A stretch of DNA of 44,206 bases, from positions 1 to 44,206 of the forward strand of contig JAADHF010000089.1 of NCBI GenBank assembly GCA_013151965.1, in the 5' to 3' direction. Below are positions 1,901 through 35,973 of the stretch, one piece after another. Position 1 is the first letter of the stretch; each line of letters begins with the position of its first letter. Source of the stretch: Spirochaetota bacterium. Its GTDB lineage: Bacteria; Spirochaetota; Spirochaetia; SZUA-6. The notes below the pieces were generated by a model, which saw nothing but the letters and a program-made list of their open reading frames with translations, did not search any database and had not been told where the DNA came from. Made by a program: the position numbers and the translations under genes.

Positions 1901-2052
1901 TATTCTCCTGCACAGGAGTCTCATACAATACTTTGTGTATTTATGTTTCTCCTTTTTTGTGGATTTTATTTTTACTTAAGATCAGGCTATGGCAGAAAAA
2001 CTTAATGTTAAAGAATACTAACGGGAATTCATCTTATACAGACCGTTCTTTC

Positions 2053-4350
2053 ATGTTCAGAATGGTCGCATTTTCGGAAAAACACAGGTATATGATAATT
2101 GTCATTACAATACTCATAACCGTTTTCTTAGGATATTTTGCAACAAAAATCAAAATCGAATCTTCGGTGCGGGACCTTCTGCCCCGAAATTCGAAGATCG
2201 TAAAACTTACCGAAAAATACGGCGGAGCTTTAAATAACACCGATTTTCTCGTATTAGCATTCGAAGCCAGAGGAAAACTTACACTTAAAAAGACAAAAGT
2301 GCTTTATAAAACGATTAAGAGCATCGAATCCCTGCCGGATGTCCATGAAAGCATTAACCCGTTTAATATAGTTACATTCCGGAAAGACGGCATAAGGTTA
2401 AAATTTACCACCCTCGCAAAAGACAGTAAACCTCCGCAGAATGAAAAAGACTTTAAGATTTTTTTGAACCGTCTGGAAACGGATCAAATTGCAAAAAACC
2501 TTGTAATTTCCGGCGACAAAACCACCCTGGCGGTACTTTTTCCAGTTGATTCCGGGGTTGACTATGAACAGCTTCTGCAGTCTGTCAGAAAAATACTAAA
2601 GGGAATACAGATCTCATTCGGTACATATATAGCCGGACAATTCCCGCTGGATGAAACAACATCAAAATACCTGGCAAACGATGTCCCCAGATTCCTTATA
2701 CTTGCCATGATCGTTATACTTTTAGTTTACTACTTCGGCTTTAAAACAGTTCGTGCAGTAATTCTGCCGATAACAACCGTATCGCTCGGAACCCTGTGGA
2801 CAGCCGGAATAATGAGTCTTTTAGGATTCAAATTAACCGTTGTCAGTATGATGACACCGCCGCTGGTGCTTACCCTCGGAAGTTCGTACAGCATTCATGT
2901 TTTAAACCAGTACTATAGAGAAGCCACTCTTAAAAACAACAAGATTAAATGGATAGCCGAATCCGTTACTCACATTAATAAAACAATTATGATGGCTGCA
3001 CTTACAACGGTAATCGGTTTTTTCAGCCTCATTTCGGCTCACATAAGGCAGATCAGGGAATTCGGAATAGCCACAAGTATGGGCATTATCTTCTGCGCCC
3101 TGCTCTCTCTGTTCTTTTTTCCCGCAGTTCTTTCCCTGCTGCCTCCGCCTACCCTGAAGCAGAAAAAACGGGTAACAGAGGGTTCTGTTACAAGGCTGCT
3201 CGGCAGAATAGGCAAGAATATCATACATTGGAGAATATTTATTCTTATCGGTGTAGTGGTAATAATTGCACTTTTTTTTGTTTCCATTAAGCATGTCGAA
3301 TATCAGACGGATTTTACAAAGTACTACAAGAAAAAGGAAAAGGCAATAAATGATAATCTTTTTGTGGTGAGAAAATTCGGCGGTTACATTTACGGCTATA
3401 TAACCTTAAGCGGCCCGAAAGGTAAAAATAATTATTTCCTGGGCCCGAAGGTTCTAAAAAAGGTTTCCGCATTCGAATCGAGGCTGCGTAAAGATCATGA
3501 TATAGCATATATATCATCCTTTGTTACATACCTCGAGCTGATGAATAAAACAATGACAGGCAGATATGAAATACCGAAAAACAGAGGTATGATACTGCTT
3601 TTATCAAGGTATTTTAAGGCTTTGGCTGCAACGTCGCAGGGCAGTTCCGTTATAGGCACGGTTCTTCATAAAAATTTTAATAAACTCACAATTGCAATAA
3701 GAATTTATAACAGCGACACAAAGAGCTTTATGCTGGAACAGAGATTTAAAACATTCAGTGCACAATTAACACGCGATGAAAAAGACACACTGGGTCCTGA
3801 AATACGTACGGAACTCTGGGGCAACAATCTCTCCGCATTCTACCTGTCCGAGACACTTGCGCATGACCAGGTAACCTCGTTACTGGTTTCCGCCCTGCTT
3901 ATTTTTCTCATTACATCTTTGGCCTTCCGCTCCTTCCTGTTCGGTTTGTTCGCCCTTATACCGATGACTGTGGGTATAATGGTTAACTTTATATGTATGT
4001 ATATTTTAAAAATACCACTCGATGTCGTTACCATTACTTTTTCCAGTGTAGCCATCGGTGTCGGTGTCGATACATCGATTCATCTTATAATCCAGTTTAA
4101 CAAGCAGAGGAGGGCAAAGAACAGCGATCCGCATAAGATTCTTGTAAACACGCTGCAGATTGCAGGGAGACCGATTTTGCTTACAACATTATCACTGGTC
4201 TCCGGACTCCTTGTTTTAGCTTTCTCCAGTTTTACACCCATTATGTTTTTCGGGATACTTGTATCACTGGTTCTGTTTACAACCGCTATAGGAGCCATTA
4301 TTGTTCTGCCGGTTTTTTTATCATTTTTTATTAGAACGGGAAAGCCATGA
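2053..4350 (+). CDS. RND-superfamily (MMPL/HAE3-like) membrane exporter; the ORF track starts at 1933 but Met at 2053 is the more likely start
   Basis: Two blocks of about 6 TM helices are each preceded by a large extracytoplasmic loop. The N-terminus MFRMVAFSEKHRYMIIVITILITVFLGYFATKIKIES matches the typical HAE3 start followed by TM1. The upstream 40 codons (MCIYVSPFLWILF...) look like a spurious extension. Confidence 0.7.
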   Translation: MFRMVAFSEKHRYMIIVITILITVFLGYFATKIKIESSVRDLLPRNSKIVKLTEKYGGALNNTDFLVLAFEARGKLTLKKTKVLYKTIKSIESLPDVHESINPFNIVTFRKDGIRLKFTTLAKDSKPPQNEKDFKIFLNRLETDQIAKNLVISGDKTTLAVLFPVDSGVDYEQLLQSVRKILKGIQISFGTYIAGQFPLDETTSKYLANDVPRFLILAMIVILLVYYFGFKTVRAVILPITTVSLGTLWTAGIMSLLGFKLTVVSMMTPPLVLTLGSSYSIHVLNQYYREATLKNNKIKWIAESVTHINKTIMMAALTTVIGFFSLISAHIRQIREFGIATSMGIIFCALLSLFFFPAVLSLLPPPTLKQKKRVTEGSVTRLLGRIGKNIIHWRIFILIGVVVIIALFFVSIKHVEYQTDFTKYYKKKEKAINDNLFVVRKFGGYIYGYITLSGPKGKNNYFLGPKVLKKVSAFESRLRKDHDIAYISSFVTYLELMNKTMTGRYEIPKNRGMILLLSRYFKALAATSQGSSVIGTVLHKNFNKLTIAIRIYNSDTKSFMLEQRFKTFSAQLTRDEKDTLGPEIRTELWGNNLSAFYLSETLAHDQVTSLLVSALLIFLITSLAFRSFLFGLFALIPMTVGIMVNFICMYILKIPLDVVTITFSSVAIGVGVDTSIHLIIQFNKQRRAKNSDPHKILVNTLQIAGRPILLTTLSLVSGLLVLAFSSFTPIMFFGILVSLVLFTTAIGAIIVLPVFLSFFIRTGKP

Positions 4351-5471
4351 GCAGAGATTCGGATAGTATAAATACATCTTCTTTTTTAAAGAGCCTGGGA
4401 TTTCCGGAAGTGGCGATTCACAGATCCTTCGACCATTTCGATTTTAAGAAAGCCGGCAGAAGAATACTGGTGATAGGGCCGATGGGTTCCGGAAAAACCG
4501 AGTATTCATCCAGGGTATGGAGAGATTCTCTTGTAGCCAAAAAGAAATCCGATGCAATAGAGTCGCTGACAAAAACCGGGAATGCGGATAGGCGGAATGT
4601 ATTTTTTATACGGTCGATTCTGGATGAGGAACGTTTTCCGGACTACCCCTCCGATGCACTTGCATACCGCGGCGGTTACGAACGATGCGGGGCAAATATA
4701 GCGTCGATACGTGATTCTTTTGAACTTGAAAAGATCATCGGCGGTAATCCGCATATCGGTACATGGATAATCGACGAAGCTACTTTCTATGAGGAACGGG
4801 TTGCCTATATAGTTAAGAATGGGTCGGAAAAAAACAACTTAATTTTTATTTTCCCGTCACTTATACTTAATTTCAGAAAGGAGATTTTTAATCCTACGGC
4901 AAAACTTCTACTTGATATCACAACTGATATCTTTCCGCTTACCGCCTACTGCGAACATCCGGACTGCCTTAAGGATTCTTTTTATACGTACAGATATTAT
5001 ACAGTTGGTAACGAAGAATGTCCTGCACTTTACTTTGATCCGCTGATAATAATCGGAGGAGACAGGGACAAGGACAACCCCCTCGAGCCTGATTACTGCA
5101 CGCGGTGCGACAGGCATCATTATCTTCCAGGCAAAGAATATACCTTTCTGATACTGAAACCCCTTGGAGAAAAAGCCTCCGAAGGCGACTACGAACCGCT
5201 TAAAAAGGAACTTTCTTTAATCAGGAACAGCATGGAAAAATCCGCACTTTATATGCATTTTTACGAGAAGTACATCGAGATTTACGACCCCGAACCTGTT
5301 ATGATGAATGCACTTAAAGTCCCATGTATTGCAGAAAAAGCGCTGATCTATCTCTTTGCCGAACAGAATTTAATCCCGGCGGGTAAACTTAAAATACTTG
5401 CAGGGGAACTTGATTTAAATACCGAATATATGGAAAAGAGATTGACGGACAATCACAGGTCCTTTTTATGA
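4347..5471 (+). CDS. Divergent thymidine kinase (TK1-family) homolog with a long insertion and a C-terminal extension
   Basis: P-loop VIGPMGSGKTE matches TK1 ILGPMFSGKSTE. IDEATFY matches TK1 IDEGQFF. IIGGDRD...CTRCDRHHY matches the TK1 VIGGADKYHSVCRLCY zinc/lasso region. The ATGA at 4347-4350 overlaps the upstream gene's stop. Confidence 0.55.
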   Translation: MSRDSDSINTSSFLKSLGFPEVAIHRSFDHFDFKKAGRRILVIGPMGSGKTEYSSRVWRDSLVAKKKSDAIESLTKTGNADRRNVFFIRSILDEERFPDYPSDALAYRGGYERCGANIASIRDSFELEKIIGGNPHIGTWIIDEATFYEERVAYIVKNGSEKNNLIFIFPSLILNFRKEIFNPTAKLLLDITTDIFPLTAYCEHPDCLKDSFYTYRYYTVGNEECPALYFDPLIIIGGDRDKDNPLEPDYCTRCDRHHYLPGKEYTFLILKPLGEKASEGDYEPLKKELSLIRNSMEKSALYMHFYEKYIEIYDPEPVMMNALKVPCIAEKALIYLFAEQNLIPAGKLKILAGELDLNTEYMEKRLTDNHRSFL

Positions 5472-5505: not shown

Positions 5506-6621
5506 ATGGGTTCGAAACTTGAAGAACTTGCAAATCCGGGCATACTTTCCATTAAACCTTATGTTCCCGGTAAATCAATACAGGAAGTTATAAAGGAAAA
5601 GGGGGTTAGAGATGTCATAAAGATGGCATCCAATGAGAATCCTCTCGGCATTTCGCCCCTTGCCTACAGGGCAGTTAAAGAAACACTTACAAATTCTTTT
5701 CAGTATCCCGAAGTAAGCAGCCTTAAACTGCGCGAGGCTTTGTCCGGGAAACTCGATATTCCTCCGGAGTATATCATGATAGGAAACGGCGCGGATGAAC
5801 TGATATATACTCTTGCCATGACGTTTTTAACGGACGGCGATGAAGTCATAATTCCCGAAATAACATTTTCCATGTATGAGATTGTGGCTCTGGCCATGAG
5901 GGGCAGAGTCGTAAAATCCCGTCTGGTCAATCTTAAAATAGACCTTAACGATATACTTTCCGGAATAACAGAAAAGACAAAGCTGATCTTTCTCTGCAAC
6001 CCCAATAATCCGACCGGCGACCTGCTGGATAAAGAAAATATTTACAGATTCATATCCTCCGTGCCGGATAATATTATTATTGTGCACGATGAATGTTATG
6101 CGGAATTTGCAGATGAAAATTACGTACCGAATCTAAGGCCTTTTATAAGAGACGGCAAAAAAAATATAATCCTGCTCCGCACATTTTCCAAAATATACGG
6201 CCTGGCGGGAATAAGAGTCGGGTACGGTATAGCAGACCCTGAAATGCTCGAATTAATGTACAGGATAAGACCTCCCTTCGGCGTTTCCGTGCCTGCGCAG
6301 GAAGCGGGTACTGCGGCATTGCAGGATGAATCTTTCTTTAAAGAAACGCTTAGTTTAACGGAGAGGGGTAAACACTATATATACGGGGAACTTAAGCGTC
6401 TCGGATTATTCTTTATAAATTCTCACACCAATTTTATTCTGATAGACACAAAAAGGGACTGCAGAGTCATTATGGATAAAATGATATCCAGGGGCATTAT
6501 CGTCCGTCCGATGAACGGGTATAACCTTCCCACATACATTCGCATTACCGTGGGAACAGAAGAACAGAACAGAAAATTTATAACTGCTCTGGAAAATGTT
6601 CTCAAGGAGGAAACCGGATAA
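5506..6621 (+). CDS. hisC: Histidinol-phosphate aminotransferase
   Basis: 371 aa of class-II aminotransferase fold with HisC-like motifs (NENPLG, the PLP-lysine region FSKIYGLAGIRVGY) and typical length. Confidence 0.85.
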   Translation: MGSKLEELANPGILSIKPYVPGKSIQEVIKEKGVRDVIKMASNENPLGISPLAYRAVKETLTNSFQYPEVSSLKLREALSGKLDIPPEYIMIGNGADELIYTLAMTFLTDGDEVIIPEITFSMYEIVALAMRGRVVKSRLVNLKIDLNDILSGITEKTKLIFLCNPNNPTGDLLDKENIYRFISSVPDNIIIVHDECYAEFADENYVPNLRPFIRDGKKNIILLRTFSKIYGLAGIRVGYGIADPEMLELMYRIRPPFGVSVPAQEAGTAALQDESFFKETLSLTERGKHYIYGELKRLGLFFINSHTNFILIDTKRDCRVIMDKMISRGIIVRPMNGYNLPTYIRITVGTEEQNRKFITALENVLKEETG

Positions 6622-7331
6622 AAGCCGCGGTTTTACTAATAGTATCCATTATTCTACTCTTTTCGGGATGTTCGGGCAAACCCCCTGAGATCCTGCAGGT
6701 TGACTGGCAGATGAATGCAGTGCGTAACCCGGACTCATTAGAGATATACCAGGCATTAAGCCTGTTTATCGATGTAACCGACCCGGATGGAATAAACGAT
6801 ATAGAAAGCATATACCTTATCAATGATGAGAATGAACTTTACTGGAAACTGACTGCAGAAGAGTGGGAAAAGAAAACAGCAGGAGGAGAAACCTGGCTCG
6901 GAAGCAACTCCTTACTGATGCCGGACGGATCGCGTTTTCCGGGAGGAGAGTACAGAATTCTCGTACAGGATACCGGAGGCGACTCCGACGAAAGAACACT
7001 GGCCATAACCGTTCCTCCCTTAAATATTTCGAAATTAAATTTCCCCGGAGTTATGGTAAAAACAGGAATTATTACGATCAAGGGGGTTAGAAAATCCTAC
7101 AGCTTATGGACTTACAGCACATCAGGCAAATACATTAACACCTTTACCCTTACTAATAAAACATTAAAAATAAACGAACTTACACAGGGCAAGCCCATCC
7201 TGTCAAAGGGATTTAACTGTTATATTTATACATACTCCTCACGCAGCAGGTACGGCCTTATATCCGGGCCTTACTACATAGAAGCTCTGGGATCCGGACG
7301 GAGAAATTCCGACAGCAGAGGCAGCAATTGA
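6618..7331 (+). CDS. Hypothetical lipoprotein; proposed start is ATA at 6618 (ORF track lists an internal ATG at 6711)
   Basis: The frame is open from 6618 and encodes (M)KAAVLLIVSIILLFSGCSGKPP, a classic lipoprotein signal peptide with lipobox LFSGC. A perfect SD AAGGAGG (6604-6610) lies 7 nt upstream. The ATA overlaps the hisC TAA stop (ATAA, analogous to ATGA coupling). Confidence 0.5.
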   Translation: MKAAVLLIVSIILLFSGCSGKPPEILQVDWQMNAVRNPDSLEIYQALSLFIDVTDPDGINDIESIYLINDENELYWKLTAEEWEKKTAGGETWLGSNSLLMPDGSRFPGGEYRILVQDTGGDSDERTLAITVPPLNISKLNFPGVMVKTGIITIKGVRKSYSLWTYSTSGKYINTFTLTNKTLKINELTQGKPILSKGFNCYIYTYSSRSRYGLISGPYYIEALGSGRRNSDSRGSN

Positions 7332-8812
7332 AACAGTATATACTTTCCCTCGATCAGGGAACGACCAGTTCCCGTGCAATTGTTTTTGACCACTCCGGAA
7401 GCATAATTGCAGGTTCTCAGAAAGAGTTTACCCAGTATTTTCCGAAGCCGGGATGGGTGGAACACAACCCGGTGGAAATATGGGAAACACAGCTTTTAAC
7501 TGCAGGGGAAGCCATACAAAAAGCCGGCATCAAAGGGGAACAGATAGCAGCAATCGGTATTACAAACCAGCGTGAAACTACCGTACTGTGGGAGAAAAAA
7601 ACAGGCAAACCTGTATATAATGCCATAGTCTGGCAATGCAGGCGTACAACGGACATCTGCAATGAATTAAAAAAGTCCGGATTGGAAGATACGATAAGGA
7701 AAAAAACAGGGCTCCTGCTCGATCCCTATTTTTCCGGAACAAAGATAAAGTGGATTCTGGATAATATCCCGGAAATAAGAAAGAGAGCGGAAAAGGGAGA
7801 AATTGCCTTCGGCACAGTCGATTCATGGCTTATCTATAACCTTACGGGCAGACATGTTACGGAACCTTCCAATGCTTCGAGAACACTTCTATACAATATT
7901 AATGACGGAAACTGGGATTCGGAGATTTTAAAGGAACTTAACATTCCGGGAGCTATGCTTCCTGTAATCTCAGCCTCCTCGGGATATTTCGGCAAAACAA
8001 AAAGAGAACTTTTCGGCGCAGAGATACCGGTAACAGGGGCTGCAGGAGACCAGCAGGCAGCGCTTTTCGGGCAGACCTGTTTTAAGAAGGGTGATGTAAA
8101 GATAACCTACGGCACGGGCTGCTTTTCCCTGATGAATACAGGAAACAGACCGGTTTTCTCGAAGAATAACCTGCTCACAACAGTTGCCTGGGACTTAGGC
8201 GGGGGGCTTCAGTACGCCATAGAGGGTTCTATTTTTATAGCCGGCGCTGTTGTTCAGTGGCTGAAAGATAAACTTCAAATTATAGACAGTTCGCCTGAAT
8301 CGGAAAAACTCGCACTATCCGTTAAGGATACCGGAGGTGTTTACTTTGTGCCGGCTTTTACCGGCCTGGGAGCGCCTTACTGGGATCCGGATGTACGGGG
8401 AACAATACTGGGAATAACCCGGGGAACAAACCGTGCTCATATCGTACGGGCAGCCCTGGAAAGTATAGCATTCCAGAGCAAAGACTTAATCGATGCCATG
8501 GAACAGGATGTTAAACTTAAGGTTAAGGAAATAAAGACCGACGGCGGAGCTTCGCTTAACAGCTTTCTTATGCAGTTTCAGGCTGACATTCTTAATAAAT
8601 CCATTATTCTGCCGCAGACAGCGGAAACTACCGCTCTGGGCGCTGCCTGCCTTGCCGGGCTCAGTACCGGCTACTGGGAAAATATAGATGAGATAAAGAA
8701 AAACTGGAAAATAAGAAAGGAGTATACCCCTGACACAAATGATGCCATCCGAAGAGAAAAGATCGAATCATGGAACCGTGCGGTTAAAGCAGCGGAAACA
8801 TTTAAAGCATAA
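7328..8812 (+). CDS. glpK: Glycerol kinase
   Basis: N-terminus MKQYILSLDQGTTSSRAIVFD matches the FGGY-kinase/GlpK signature. Length is 494 aa. The TTG start forms a TTGA overlap with the upstream stop. Confidence 0.9.
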   Translation: MKQYILSLDQGTTSSRAIVFDHSGSIIAGSQKEFTQYFPKPGWVEHNPVEIWETQLLTAGEAIQKAGIKGEQIAAIGITNQRETTVLWEKKTGKPVYNAIVWQCRRTTDICNELKKSGLEDTIRKKTGLLLDPYFSGTKIKWILDNIPEIRKRAEKGEIAFGTVDSWLIYNLTGRHVTEPSNASRTLLYNINDGNWDSEILKELNIPGAMLPVISASSGYFGKTKRELFGAEIPVTGAAGDQQAALFGQTCFKKGDVKITYGTGCFSLMNTGNRPVFSKNNLLTTVAWDLGGGLQYAIEGSIFIAGAVVQWLKDKLQIIDSSPESEKLALSVKDTGGVYFVPAFTGLGAPYWDPDVRGTILGITRGTNRAHIVRAALESIAFQSKDLIDAMEQDVKLKVKEIKTDGGASLNSFLMQFQADILNKSIILPQTAETTALGAACLAGLSTGYWENIDEIKKNWKIRKEYTPDTNDAIRREKIESWNRAVKAAETFKA

Positions 8813-8864: not shown

Positions 8865-8865
8865 G

Positions 8866-8938
<73 letters not shown>

Positions 8939-16795: not shown

Positions 16796-18091
16796 TTAAT
16801 AAGCTTCTTTTCTGATTTTTTCCAGCCCTGCAAGAATGCTGTCCAGTTTAGAAGGATCCTGAACATAACTCATTATAGCGGACCAGAATGCCTGGTTCAT
16901 GGCAGACGGCATCATATCGGATGCATCGAATGCAACAATATCCGCACCTGTCAGAATTTTAGCCGCATTCCTGGAAAGCTCATCCGGATAATCCGAAAGA
17001 GGCACGCTGCGGTTCGGAGATATTCCGCTGGAAGCTTTTACCCAATATTCCTGAGCTTCTGCAGTCGAAAGGTACTTAATAAATGCCCGGGCCTGCGGTG
17101 TATCGTTAAACATTCCGAAAAGATCTCCCGCTGCTTCGACCGCTTTACCATACTTCGGATCTATCTGCGGAAAACCGAAGAAATTAAAATCCTTGACAGG
17201 CTTGAGGTTAGGAAACTGCTTCATGATAAAACTCTGAATAAAGGTTGCCTGATGATGAAAGTAAGCTTTCGGGGGATTGCTGAATAAAGGTCCGACTGCC
17301 TGTCCGAAATTCGTGGACAGAACGTACTGCTTTCCGCCGTATACCATCTTGTTGTTTGCAACAATTTCTCCCCACATCTTCCACGCTTTCTTAACCTCGG
17401 GCGATGTCCATGCGAGTTTTCCCTTATACCACTCCACATACTTTTTGGGACCTGCTGTCCTGAGCATTATGTCTTCTATCCAGTCCGTTCCGGGCCATCC
17501 GCTCGCAGCACCGCTTTCCAGACCGATCGACCACGGAGTTTTGCCTTCGCTTACGAGTTTTTTCGATATTGTCATAAGTTCATCCCAGGTCTTCGGTATG
17601 GCAATACCTTCGGCTTTTAAAGCTTCCGGACTGTACCAGATAGGACCCTTAACTGCAGCTTTTAAAAATATGCCGACAAGTTTTCCGTTTACCGAACCAA
17701 GATCGATCCAGCTCTGCGCGTAATCTTTTTTCATCCTGTTCATATCAAAGAACTTACCGAGGTCAACCAGCTTGCCTTCCTTCGCAAACTGAATCATCTG
17801 CCCCGGACCCGGCAGCCCTGCAATGTCCGGCGGATTACCTGCTTTAAGCCGCGTTGTAAGAACAGCGGAGATATCCCGTGTTCCTTGATTCTCTACTTTT
17901 ATGCCTGTCCTTTCCTCAAAGGGCTTTATCATATTCTTAAATATTTCGAGCTCATTTCCACCCCAGACTGTAAGTACGGAAACTGTCCCGCCTATCTTAC
18001 CACTGCTTTTGGCAGTTTCCTGCTTTCCTGCTGCAAATAATGATGCAACGGTAAATAGTAGAATAAACAGTAGAACAAGAGTTTTTTTCAT
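16796..18091 (-). CDS. Extracellular sugar-binding protein of the ABC transporter; start trimmed to MKKTLV at 18091 (ORF track extends to 18157)
   Basis: Signal/lipoprotein-like N-terminus MKKTLVLLFILLFTVASLFAAGKQE. A strong SD AGGAGG lies 8 nt upstream of 18091. The length and composition are typical of a family-1 solute-binding protein. Confidence 0.85.
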   Translation of the reverse strand: MKKTLVLLFILLFTVASLFAAGKQETAKSSGKIGGTVSVLTVWGGNELEIFKNMIKPFEERTGIKVENQGTRDISAVLTTRLKAGNPPDIAGLPGPGQMIQFAKEGKLVDLGKFFDMNRMKKDYAQSWIDLGSVNGKLVGIFLKAAVKGPIWYSPEALKAEGIAIPKTWDELMTISKKLVSEGKTPWSIGLESGAASGWPGTDWIEDIMLRTAGPKKYVEWYKGKLAWTSPEVKKAWKMWGEIVANNKMVYGGKQYVLSTNFGQAVGPLFSNPPKAYFHHQATFIQSFIMKQFPNLKPVKDFNFFGFPQIDPKYGKAVEAAGDLFGMFNDTPQARAFIKYLSTAEAQEYWVKASSGISPNRSVPLSDYPDELSRNAAKILTGADIVAFDASDMMPSAMNQAFWSAIMSYVQDPSKLDSILAGLEKIRKEAY

Positions 18092-18129
18092 TTCTCCCTC
18101 CTTAATAGTGATTAATTTATACGCACTAT

Positions 18130-18141
18130 TAATGCGCATTA
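18130..18141. promoter_or_regulatory. Perfect 12-bp palindrome TAATGCGCATTA; candidate LacI-family operator
   Basis: A central CG dyad as in LacI-family operators. It lies 39 bp upstream of the binding-protein start codon and about 8-10 bp downstream of the predicted -10. A second 8-bp inverted repeat TAATAGTG(18103-18110)/CACTATTA(18124-18131) overlaps it. Confidence 0.35.
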
Positions 18142-18148
18142 CTAATTT

Positions 18149-18176
18149 ATTATGCATTTATAATTATGTTTGTCAA
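18149..18176 (-). promoter_or_regulatory. Sigma70-like promoter of the sugar ABC/LacI/treT operon
   Basis: On the minus strand: TTGACA (complement of 18171-18176), a 16-nt spacer, then CATAAT (complement of 18149-18154). Confidence 0.4.
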
Positions 18177-24470: not shown

Positions 24471-25603
24471 AAGCAGACAATCCTTCCCGAAGCTCTCATA
24501 GTATCAGCTTTTCTGCAGCGCACAAGAAAATCCTCATCCTTTAGAAATGTTATACTTCCGGCAGGTTTAAAACGCTTTACAGTTTCCGCAATCTGTTCCA
24601 CCTTCCTCAGCATGATGGAAAAACCTGCAGCAGGTGCACTGTATCCGAAGGAACTGAAAAGATTATTGTATCTTCCTCCCGAAGCTATCGATGTATCTAC
24701 CCCTTTCAGATAAACCTGAAATGATAAACCGGTATAGTAATCCTGGCCGCCGATTTCGGAGAGATCTATTTTTACCTGCTCTGCAGTATCTAATTTTTCC
24801 AGATATGCGTAGATTTTTATAAGATATTCTATCTCTTCTTTTGTTTCTTTTTTTAAATTCGAATTCATCCCATCCAGCAAATCCTGTAATTCGGAACCCG
24901 TGCCGATAAACGAAAACAGATCGATCAGATTTCTGCAGAACAGCTCCGGCTTGTACTTTTCGAGAAGATATTTTAATTCTACCCAATCCCTTACTCTTAT
25001 TGCCTGTAATGCTTCCTTTCTTACCGAATCATTTTCCTCACCGGCAAATCCGCTGAAACAGAATCCGAATAGATTCCTCGATCCTATATGAATCTGTGAT
25101 TCGGATATCCCCAACAGCTTTAGCGAAGAAACAAGCAGGAGGATAATCTCAAGGTCGGCTTCTATACCATTCTTTCCTATTAACTCCGCCCCGACCTGAA
25201 AAAATTCATTATGGGAAATATCCTCATTGCTCTGATACCTTAAGATCGTATCCGCATAGCAGACCCTTAACGGAAGAATGTCATCACTGAGTATCAGCCC
25301 GATTTGTTTTGCCATAAACAATGTTATATCCGAACGCAGCATTAGAAGGTCGCCGTTTCTGTCTATAAGCCTGTATACCTTCTCACGCGTTCCGGTATTC
25401 ATCATTCTGCTGTAAATATCATAGAAATCAAAAACCGGTGTTTCTATCGGCAGATATCCCCAGAGATTAAAAAGTTCAAGCAACGAATTTTCAATTTTTC
25501 TGTGTAAATAAGCCTCTTCCAGCTGAAAACTCTCCGTTCCTTTGGGTATCTGAAGTAATTTTCTCCTATCCATATATGCCTCTGTACATCCTTTATTCAA
25601 CAA
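24467..25603 (-). CDS. hisZ: ATP phosphoribosyltransferase regulatory subunit (HisRS paralog)
   Basis: Class-II aaRS-like core without an anticodon-binding domain. Its pairing with a short-form hisG implies HisZ. The true start may be the internal MDRRKLLQIPKGTES (25573). Confidence 0.75.
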   Translation of the reverse strand: MLNKGCTEAYMDRRKLLQIPKGTESFQLEEAYLHRKIENSLLELFNLWGYLPIETPVFDFYDIYSRMMNTGTREKVYRLIDRNGDLLMLRSDITLFMAKQIGLILSDDILPLRVCYADTILRYQSNEDISHNEFFQVGAELIGKNGIEADLEIILLLVSSLKLLGISESQIHIGSRNLFGFCFSGFAGEENDSVRKEALQAIRVRDWVELKYLLEKYKPELFCRNLIDLFSFIGTGSELQDLLDGMNSNLKKETKEEIEYLIKIYAYLEKLDTAEQVKIDLSEIGGQDYYTGLSFQVYLKGVDTSIASGGRYNNLFSSFGYSAPAAGFSIMLRKVEQIAETVKRFKPAGSITFLKDEDFLVRCRKADTMRASGRIVCL

Positions 25604-35952: not shown

Positions 35953-35973
35953 CAACAGGAGGCAGGGCAGATT

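Follow-up and report, generated by a model that had tools for sequence, protein, structure and literature searches.

On a 44,206-bp contig of a metagenome-assembled genome (MAG) labeled “Spirochaetes bacterium” (JAADHF010000089.1; the whole stretch is referred to as the window), hisC is followed by a gene for a predicted lipoprotein, and translation of this gene probably begins at the ATA triplet at positions 6618-6620, a reading to which a probability of about 0.8 is assigned. In the deposited annotation, the gene starts at the ATG at 6711 (6711..7331, 206 aa, NOY09008.1/GXP33_09215), which lies in the same frame as the ATA. This frame is open from 6525 onward, after a stop at 6522-6524, and contains no ATG, GTG, or TTG between 6525 and 6710, which leaves 6711 as the first canonical start. 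An original prediction, made from this DNA alone, had pointed to the ATA, to a Shine-Dalgarno (SD) sequence 7 nt in front of it, to the overlap of the ATA with the hisC stop, and to the lack of an ATG, GTG, or TTG in frame; all of these were correct when checked against the sequence. The features concerned are as follows, with positions in the window.

5506..6621, forward strand: hisC, encoding histidinol-phosphate transaminase (open reading frame [ORF] list; Pfam Aminotran_1_2; NCBIfam TIGR01141)
6604..6610, forward strand: SD sequence AAGGAGG, 7 nt upstream of the ATA, with equivalents in relatives
6618..6620, forward strand: predicted ATA (AUA) initiation codon, followed by AAA (Lys); the only conserved start candidate, identical in five haplotypes
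6618..7331, forward strand: corrected lipoprotein ORF of 237 codons plus stop, based on translation, homologs, and an AlphaFold2 (AF2) model
6618..6668, forward strand: predicted lipoprotein signal peptide (M)KAAVLLIVSIILLFSG, with Lys in the n-region, a hydrophobic core, and the lipobox L-F-S-G, then Cys
6669..6671, forward strand: lipobox Cys18, the predicted lipidated residue 1 of the mature protein, which opens the conserved CSGKPPEI motif
6711..6713, forward strand: ATG of the annotated start, here internal Met32; without an SD sequence and Leu or Ile in most homologs

The hisC product matched Aminotran_1_2 with 3.5e-58 and reached 332.7 bits for the TIGR01141 hisC equivalog (cutoff, 276.6). 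The last hisC codons contain the SD sequence of the next gene, the spacer between this SD sequence and the ATA is AAACCGG, and the hisC stop TAA at 6619-6621 forms an ATAA with the predicted initiation codon. Translation from the ATA yields (M/I)KAAVLLIVSIILLFSGCSGKPPEILQVDWQM..., and the precursor reads (M)KAAVLLIVSIILLFSG in front of the predicted cleavage site and CSGKPPEILQVDWQM... behind it. Three properties expected of a genuine non-canonical start were found together at this site: no other start is available, the SD sequence stands at a functional spacing, and the unusual codon is conserved.

Conservation of the SD sequence and the ATA in relatives

Five haplotypes made up the ATA clade, namely the window, L054, L001/L002/L003, L004/L055-L059, and L053/L060/L061; they were found on a total of 14 contigs that came from several samples and assemblers, with protein identities to the window of 57-91%. 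A scan of metagenome contigs with a clade-specific alignment added only one locus, L053, and a scan of genome contigs retrieved orthologs with no more than 45% identity and one frameshifted 53% match, none of them belonging to the ATA clade. All five haplotypes had in common the arrangement of an SD sequence, a spacer of 7-8 nt, and ATA followed by AAR.

The start region was TAAGGAGaaagtcggATAAAA in L054 (91% identity; fuller stretch, cttAAGGAGaaagtcggATAAaaacc) and TAAGGAGaaaaccggATAAAA in L001/L002/L003 (83% identity; fuller stretch, cttAAGGAGaaaaccggATAAaaact). The SD sequence of L054 and L001 is TAAGGAG, 8 nt upstream of the ATA, and in these types, as in the window, the ATA and the hisC stop overlap as ATAA. 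They also possess an in-frame TAA, within “cTTAAGG,” four codons upstream of the ATA, so that nothing else can start the ORF there. Of the 31 codons upstream of Met32, nine differ between the window and L001, 4 of them synonymously and 5 through conservative amino acid changes in the leader; the frame is not disrupted and no stop arises. Of the two branches of the original prediction, the one in which the ATA is genuinely used as a start is strongly supported by this comparison: SD sequence and ATA are present in five haplotypes, mostly with no other start possible.

A sequencing or assembly error at 6620, or a very recent G-to-A change there, would mean that the true gene starts with ATGA. 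This had been the other branch of the original prediction, and it takes into account that ATG becomes ATA by a single transition and that the contig comes from a MAG. The same A was found on all 14 contigs, from different samples and assemblers and over the entire identity range, and many substitutions surround the shared ATA, which makes such an error or recent change scarcely credible.

In L004 and L055-L059 (57% identity), the start region is AAGGAGaaacaaaATAAAG (fuller stretch, aaAAGGAGaaacaaaATAAAGagagtt) and encodes MKRVKPLAAALMTILFTFLFLSC followed by SSKPPEI. The SD sequence AAGGAG is positioned 7 nt upstream of the ATA, as it is in L053, and the ATA is located 58 nt downstream of the hisC stop, with the module in intergenic DNA. 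A TTG and a GTG upstream of the module are in frame with the gene in this lineage, and the gene callers chose the TTG, yielding a 248-aa product (J7K04_13215; NCBI annotation). A near-consensus sigma-70 promoter was predicted at 2016-2043 of L004, TTGACA-16 nt-TGcTAAAAT, with 11/12 matches and an extended −10 site; a random 58-mer with the same dinucleotide composition would contain a match this good with a probability of about 6e-4. The TTG is part of the −35 hexamer of this predicted promoter and the TG inside the GTG is the TG of its extended −10 site. The same predicted promoter was present in L053 at about 335-362, with equivalents in L055-L061. In the window lineage, the 150 nt preceding the ATA contained no promoter-like site better than 8/12.

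The L053/L060/L061 allele differs from L004 by several linked single-nucleotide polymorphisms and by one additional A in the A-run upstream of the SD sequence, 7-A (L053 about 378-384) versus 6-A (L004 2045-2050), just downstream of the −10 site and near the expected transcription start. The additional base moves TTG and GTG out of frame and creates a TAA stop in the frame of the gene, nine codons in front of the ATA; gene callers used an ATG within the hydrophobic core instead, giving 219 or 200 aa. Since TTG and GTG coincide with promoter elements and are out of frame in this allele, the region upstream of the SD sequence appears to behave as non-coding DNA, and the ATA is apparently the only start common to the five haplotypes.

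These alleles also bear on whether another initiation codon might be used, which could be ATT at 6576, ATA at 6534 or 6639, or ATT at 6648 or 6651 in the window, and GTG, TTG, or the ATG of the h-region in the distant lineage. The open window frame contains all of the former triplets, and L004 has its two in-frame canonical codons, one of them already annotated. None of these codons possesses an SD sequence, however. The in-frame TAA in L001 and L054 leaves only the last 4 codons before the ATA, and the triplets downstream of the ATA lack conservation (L001 has ACA in place of ATA 6639) and, if used as starts, would shorten the signal peptide. The TTG and GTG of L004 are subject to the promoter and frame arguments above, and the h-region ATG would leave an 11-residue uncharged leader. 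Use of any of these codons is therefore unlikely, although somewhat less so than the other alternatives to the ATA.

Alternatively, the lipoprotein may have no start of its own and arise as a HisC-lipoprotein fusion by programmed −1 frameshifting or read-through at the end of hisC, because the lipoprotein is encoded in the −1 frame with respect to hisC, and in the window this frame runs over the last hisC codons. A signal peptide placed behind 371 residues of a cytoplasmic enzyme is not expected to function, reading CC-GGA-TAA revealed no evident slippery heptamer, no unusual RNA structure was found (z about 0), and hisC of the sister lineage is set apart by a stop, 58 nt, and the predicted promoter. 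Of all explanations considered, this one has next to no probability.

Signal peptide, protein family, and age of the ATA codon

A lipobox rule in the form of a PROSITE-type regular expression was applied together with Kyte-Doolittle hydropathy to the peptides of the five haplotypes read from the ATA. All five fitted the pattern, with Cys at residue 18 or 23, Lys or Arg in the n-region, and a hydrophobic core. The window peptide passed with its Cys at residue 18, a Lys in the n-region, and a mean core hydropathy of 2.8, compared to a hydropathy of 0.3 for the N-terminus of the annotated form. The sequence features of a lipoprotein precursor, which are a charged n-region, a hydrophobic h-region, and [LIVMF..]-x-[AGS]-C with the Cys within residues 15-35, are thus present.

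A search of a collection of 5.8 billion proteins for homologs gave 46 matches on Spirochaetota-labeled or unlabeled metagenomic contigs, most of them of 220-250 aa. In the family alignment of 45 sequences, nearly all full-length members carried a hydrophobic leader ending in the lipobox Cys, and the best-conserved N-terminal motif, C-(S/T/A)-G-(K/E)-P-P-E-I, followed directly after this leader. The statement in the original prediction that the signal peptide and lipobox upstream of 6711 cannot be accidental was borne out by this conservation across the family (45 homologs), and the ortholog comparison suggested at that time has now been done: the orthologs do not start at the downstream ATG and they keep the signal peptide. 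The N-terminal extension upstream of 6711 is, by all appearances, real coding sequence.

If the ATG at 6711 were nevertheless the real start, the signal-peptide-like stretch would be a decaying relic and the protein would now be cytoplasmic. This position is the first canonical start and was the choice of the gene callers in the window, L001, and L054. No SD sequence was found upstream of it, and Met32 is clade-specific, being missing in L004 and represented by L or I in most homologs (WQLN, WQIN). Moreover, the 31 upstream codons have remained open, hydrophobic, and lipobox-compliant over a near-saturating synonymous divergence, the differences between the window and L001 include synonymous changes, and a start at 6711 would delete the CSGKPPEI motif and the first beta-strand of the structure model. 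Initiation at 6711 is therefore very unlikely, since it would lose the signal for export and lipidation plus 13 conserved mature residues.

AF2 modeling on the 45-sequence alignment resulted in a mean predicted local distance difference test (pLDDT) value of 87.5, with an N-terminal helix at residues 2-15, corresponding to the signal peptide, and two beta-sandwich domains behind it. The mature protein is accordingly modeled as two immunoglobulin (Ig)-like beta-sandwich domains, and the family was seen here only in Spirochaetota. Foldseek against the PDB returned only generic tandem Ig/FN3-like matches with template modeling (TM) scores below 0.45, so that no function can be assigned, and the lipoprotein had no match to a Pfam or NCBIfam family. 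In the window, the protein has an additional 14-residue C-terminal tail of low confidence (LGSGRRNSDSRGSN) past the usual family end ...GPYY(V/I)xP.

The age of the ATA codon can be judged from the divergence of the lineages that carry it. Against L001, the identity of the window at four-fold degenerate sites was 0.74-0.83; against L004, it was 0.33-0.40 in hisC, glpK, and the lipoprotein gene, a value near saturation. The ATA is unchanged between the window and L004 despite this near-saturation, although one A-to-G transition would yield ATG. In 45 of 48 more distant orthologs recovered from species-representative genomes, the lipobox Cys was preceded by a canonical start, 12-50 codons away. 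The other three loci were L021, at a contig edge, L046, with an apparent frameshift and no lipobox Cys, and L038, with no start available. L038 and L046 are high-GC relatives labeled MFD with an N-terminal disruption of the ortholog, and these disruptions look more like assembly indels than non-canonical starts.

Because 45 of the 48 distant orthologs have a canonical start, the ATA state would be a derived character of one clade that was acquired once and then retained. An ancestral ATG-to-ATA substitution, as considered in the original prediction, is thus plausible; it would be old and retained, not a recent lesion. The ancestral “ATGA overlap” proposed along with it is not supported, since the overlap with hisC exists only in the lineage of the window and is replaced by 58 nt and a predicted promoter in the 57% lineage.

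Initiation context, proposed mechanism, and neighboring genes

The heptamer AAGGAGG occurred twice in the 44-kb window compared to 7.7 ± 2.9 times in shuffles. This under-representation is typical of an SD-using organism, and many canonical starts in the window have AGGAG, AAGGAG, or GGAGG 5-9 nt upstream. The second copy is located at 18097-18103 on the minus strand within ORF 16796..18157 (minus strand); the first ATG of that ORF lies 54 nt upstream of the copy and may therefore be too early a start. In a scan of the window, 6618 was the only position at which a strong SD sequence and a near-cognate codon opened a long extension (62 codons) of a canonical ORF; no other substantial start with an SD sequence and ATA, ATT, ATC, or CTG was found. 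Two further sites, ATT at 35971 and CTG at 24476, were rejected, each being only 1-2 codons away from an ATG that uses the same SD sequence. RNA folding around the start in three lineages gave no structure beyond that of shuffles (z 0.0-0.7), so that no riboswitch- or thermometer-like control is suggested.

These observations can be combined into a model of the transcription and translation of this gene. The gene downstream of hisC would encode a 237-residue lipoprotein precursor initiated at a near-cognate AUA, which initiator tRNA presumably decodes as formylmethionine (fMet). The AAGGAGG at 7 nt, the A-rich unstructured spacer, and the AAA second codon would position the 30S subunit on the AUA; in the clade as a whole, an SD sequence of 6-7 nt, a spacing of 7-8 nt, AAR as the second codon, and the lack of competing RNA structure may together represent an optimized initiation region. 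In the window lineage, the AUAA overlap might allow ribosomes that finish hisC to re-initiate at the AUA, while the SD-AUA-AAG module of the sister lineage would be driven by its own predicted promoter. The ATA is therefore not sustained by coupling to hisC. With its weak start codon, the gene probably has a low output that is sensitive to the level of initiation factor 3 (IF3) and to the nutrient state, and the likely consequence is a low, condition-dependent synthesis of the lipoprotein. The product would be exported, lipid-modified on Cys18, and cleaved, resulting in a two-domain Ig-like lipoprotein of the surface or periplasm.

Several points weigh against initiation at the ATA. This initiation, its efficiency, a regulatory role, and the lipidation are all inferred, and the organism is uncultured. 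The output may be very low because AUA reached only 1-2% of AUG in Escherichia coli reporters (10.1101/063800). In the window lineage, the SD sequence and the ATA lie in or over hisC codons (K-E-E-T-G-stop), and their conservation could partly be a constraint on hisC. In the 6-A allele, the in-frame GTG also yields a plausible n-region rich in Lys and Arg, so that use of the ATA is not forced there. Finally, a single ancestral event in one clade underlies the pattern, and some of the contigs may stem from related samples.

Initiation at the AUA may be more than a tolerated oddity. It is conceivable, but doubtful, that selection actively maintains the AUA start for regulation, as a throttle on an envelope lipoprotein that responds to IF3, guanosine tetraphosphate (ppGpp), or the growth state and that was kept over a near-saturating divergence while its context was rewired between a hisC-coupled overlap and an autonomous promoter. 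There is also the possibility that this spirochete clade carries further SD-driven ATA or ATT starts that are truncated by standard gene callers.

The gene order of a thymidine-kinase-like gene, hisC, the lipoprotein gene, and glpK is conserved in the clade (L001, L004, L054, and L055). The last of these genes in the window is the following.

7328..8812, forward strand: glpK, encoding glycerol kinase, with a TTG start (Pfam FGGY_N and FGGY_C)

The TGA stop of the lipoprotein gene and the TTG start of glpK overlap as TTGA at 7328-7331 in the window, unlike in L001 and L004, where glpK begins about 90-110 nt past the lipoprotein stop. The thymidine-kinase-like gene (4347-5471) encodes a 374-aa protein with a weak partial match to thymidine kinase (Pfam TK, 28 bits; NCBIfam, 34 bits with a cutoff of 183). 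It is positioned directly upstream of hisC in all clade members, with a gap of 34 nt in the window, and its homolog in the high-GC relative L020 is directly upstream of the lipoprotein gene. An 805-aa ORF (1933..4350) overlaps the thymidine-kinase-like gene by 4 nt at 4347-4350, for which an ATGA-type layout is expected from the coordinates. An Rfam scan of the window yielded one tRNA and nothing else; this tRNA-Phe (GAA) at 8865-8938 (minus strand), just downstream of glpK, was the sole Rfam or ARAGORN match.

Annotation consequences and comparison with known AUA starts

The deposited 206-aa protein is devoid of the signal peptide, the lipobox Cys, and 13 mature residues, so that predictions of localization or surface exposure based on it would be wrong. 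Gene callers assigned five different N-termini to the same gene in close relatives, leading to products of 206, 212, 248, 219, and 200 aa, and one of these choices, the TTG, takes the −35 hexamer of a predicted promoter as a start codon. The peptide PPEILQVDWQMNAVR spans the annotated Met at 6711, where the annotated form begins with MNAVRNPD.... The locus would be a clean natural example of a conserved AUA start with a strong SD sequence in a phylum for which no report was found, and start-codon stringency in Spirochaetota could be tested on it. Searching the literature retrieved no report of ATA starts in spirochetes and, for “ATA start codon” together with lipoprotein, only irrelevant irisin papers.

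Genetic code table 11 includes ATA among its initiators. In Staphylococcus aureus, infC, ccpN (conserved in Bacillus subtilis), and citZ use AUA behind extended SD sequences, with an output of about 10-30% of that of AUG, as mapped by Ribo-Ret and quantified with reporters (PMC13009471, Nat Commun 2026). AUA in an optimized initiation region was similar to AUG in E. coli extracts but strongly sensitive to nutrient limitation and ppGpp (PMC5499595). IF3 discriminates against near-cognate starts such as AUA (PMC9723500), and the AUU start of infC is the classic IF3-regulated case (PMC5499595; PMC9723500).

The candidate start described here resembles those of S. aureus ccpN, citZ, and infC in that an AUA without a canonical alternative stands behind a strong SD sequence at optimal spacing, both conserved in relatives, and in its presumably attenuated, condition-sensitive initiation. 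It differs from them in being read from sequence instead of being mapped and quantified, and its product is an exported lipoprotein of an uncultured member of the Spirochaetota and not a regulator, a metabolic enzyme, or IF3. With the AUU or AUC starts of E. coli-type infC, it shares a phylogenetically conserved non-canonical AUN codon, the output of which would depend on the IF3 level; the product is a two-domain Ig-like lipoprotein and not IF3, hence no autoregulatory loop would result.

As in ATGA or TAATG overlaps, the start in the window, L001, and L054 overlaps the hisC stop by 2 nt with the SD sequence inside hisC. Unlike in these, the start is an ATA and the overlap is not conserved among the orthologs, being absent from L004 and L053 in favor of the 58-nt spacer and predicted promoter of the sister lineage; coupling is therefore dispensable for the ATA start. 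The precursor resembles bacterial (spirochetal) lipoprotein precursors processed by Lgt and LspA: its n-region is short and contains Lys, its core is hydrophobic, its lipobox reads L-F-S-G-C or F-L-S-C, and the Cys is at residue 18-23. It deviates from the classical L/V/I lipobox in the Phe at position −3 of the window protein, which is accepted by the PROSITE-type pattern, with lipidation as a prediction. Conserved AUA starts behind extended SD sequences are already documented, and this locus adds one more case and an annotation correction to them, not a new mechanism.

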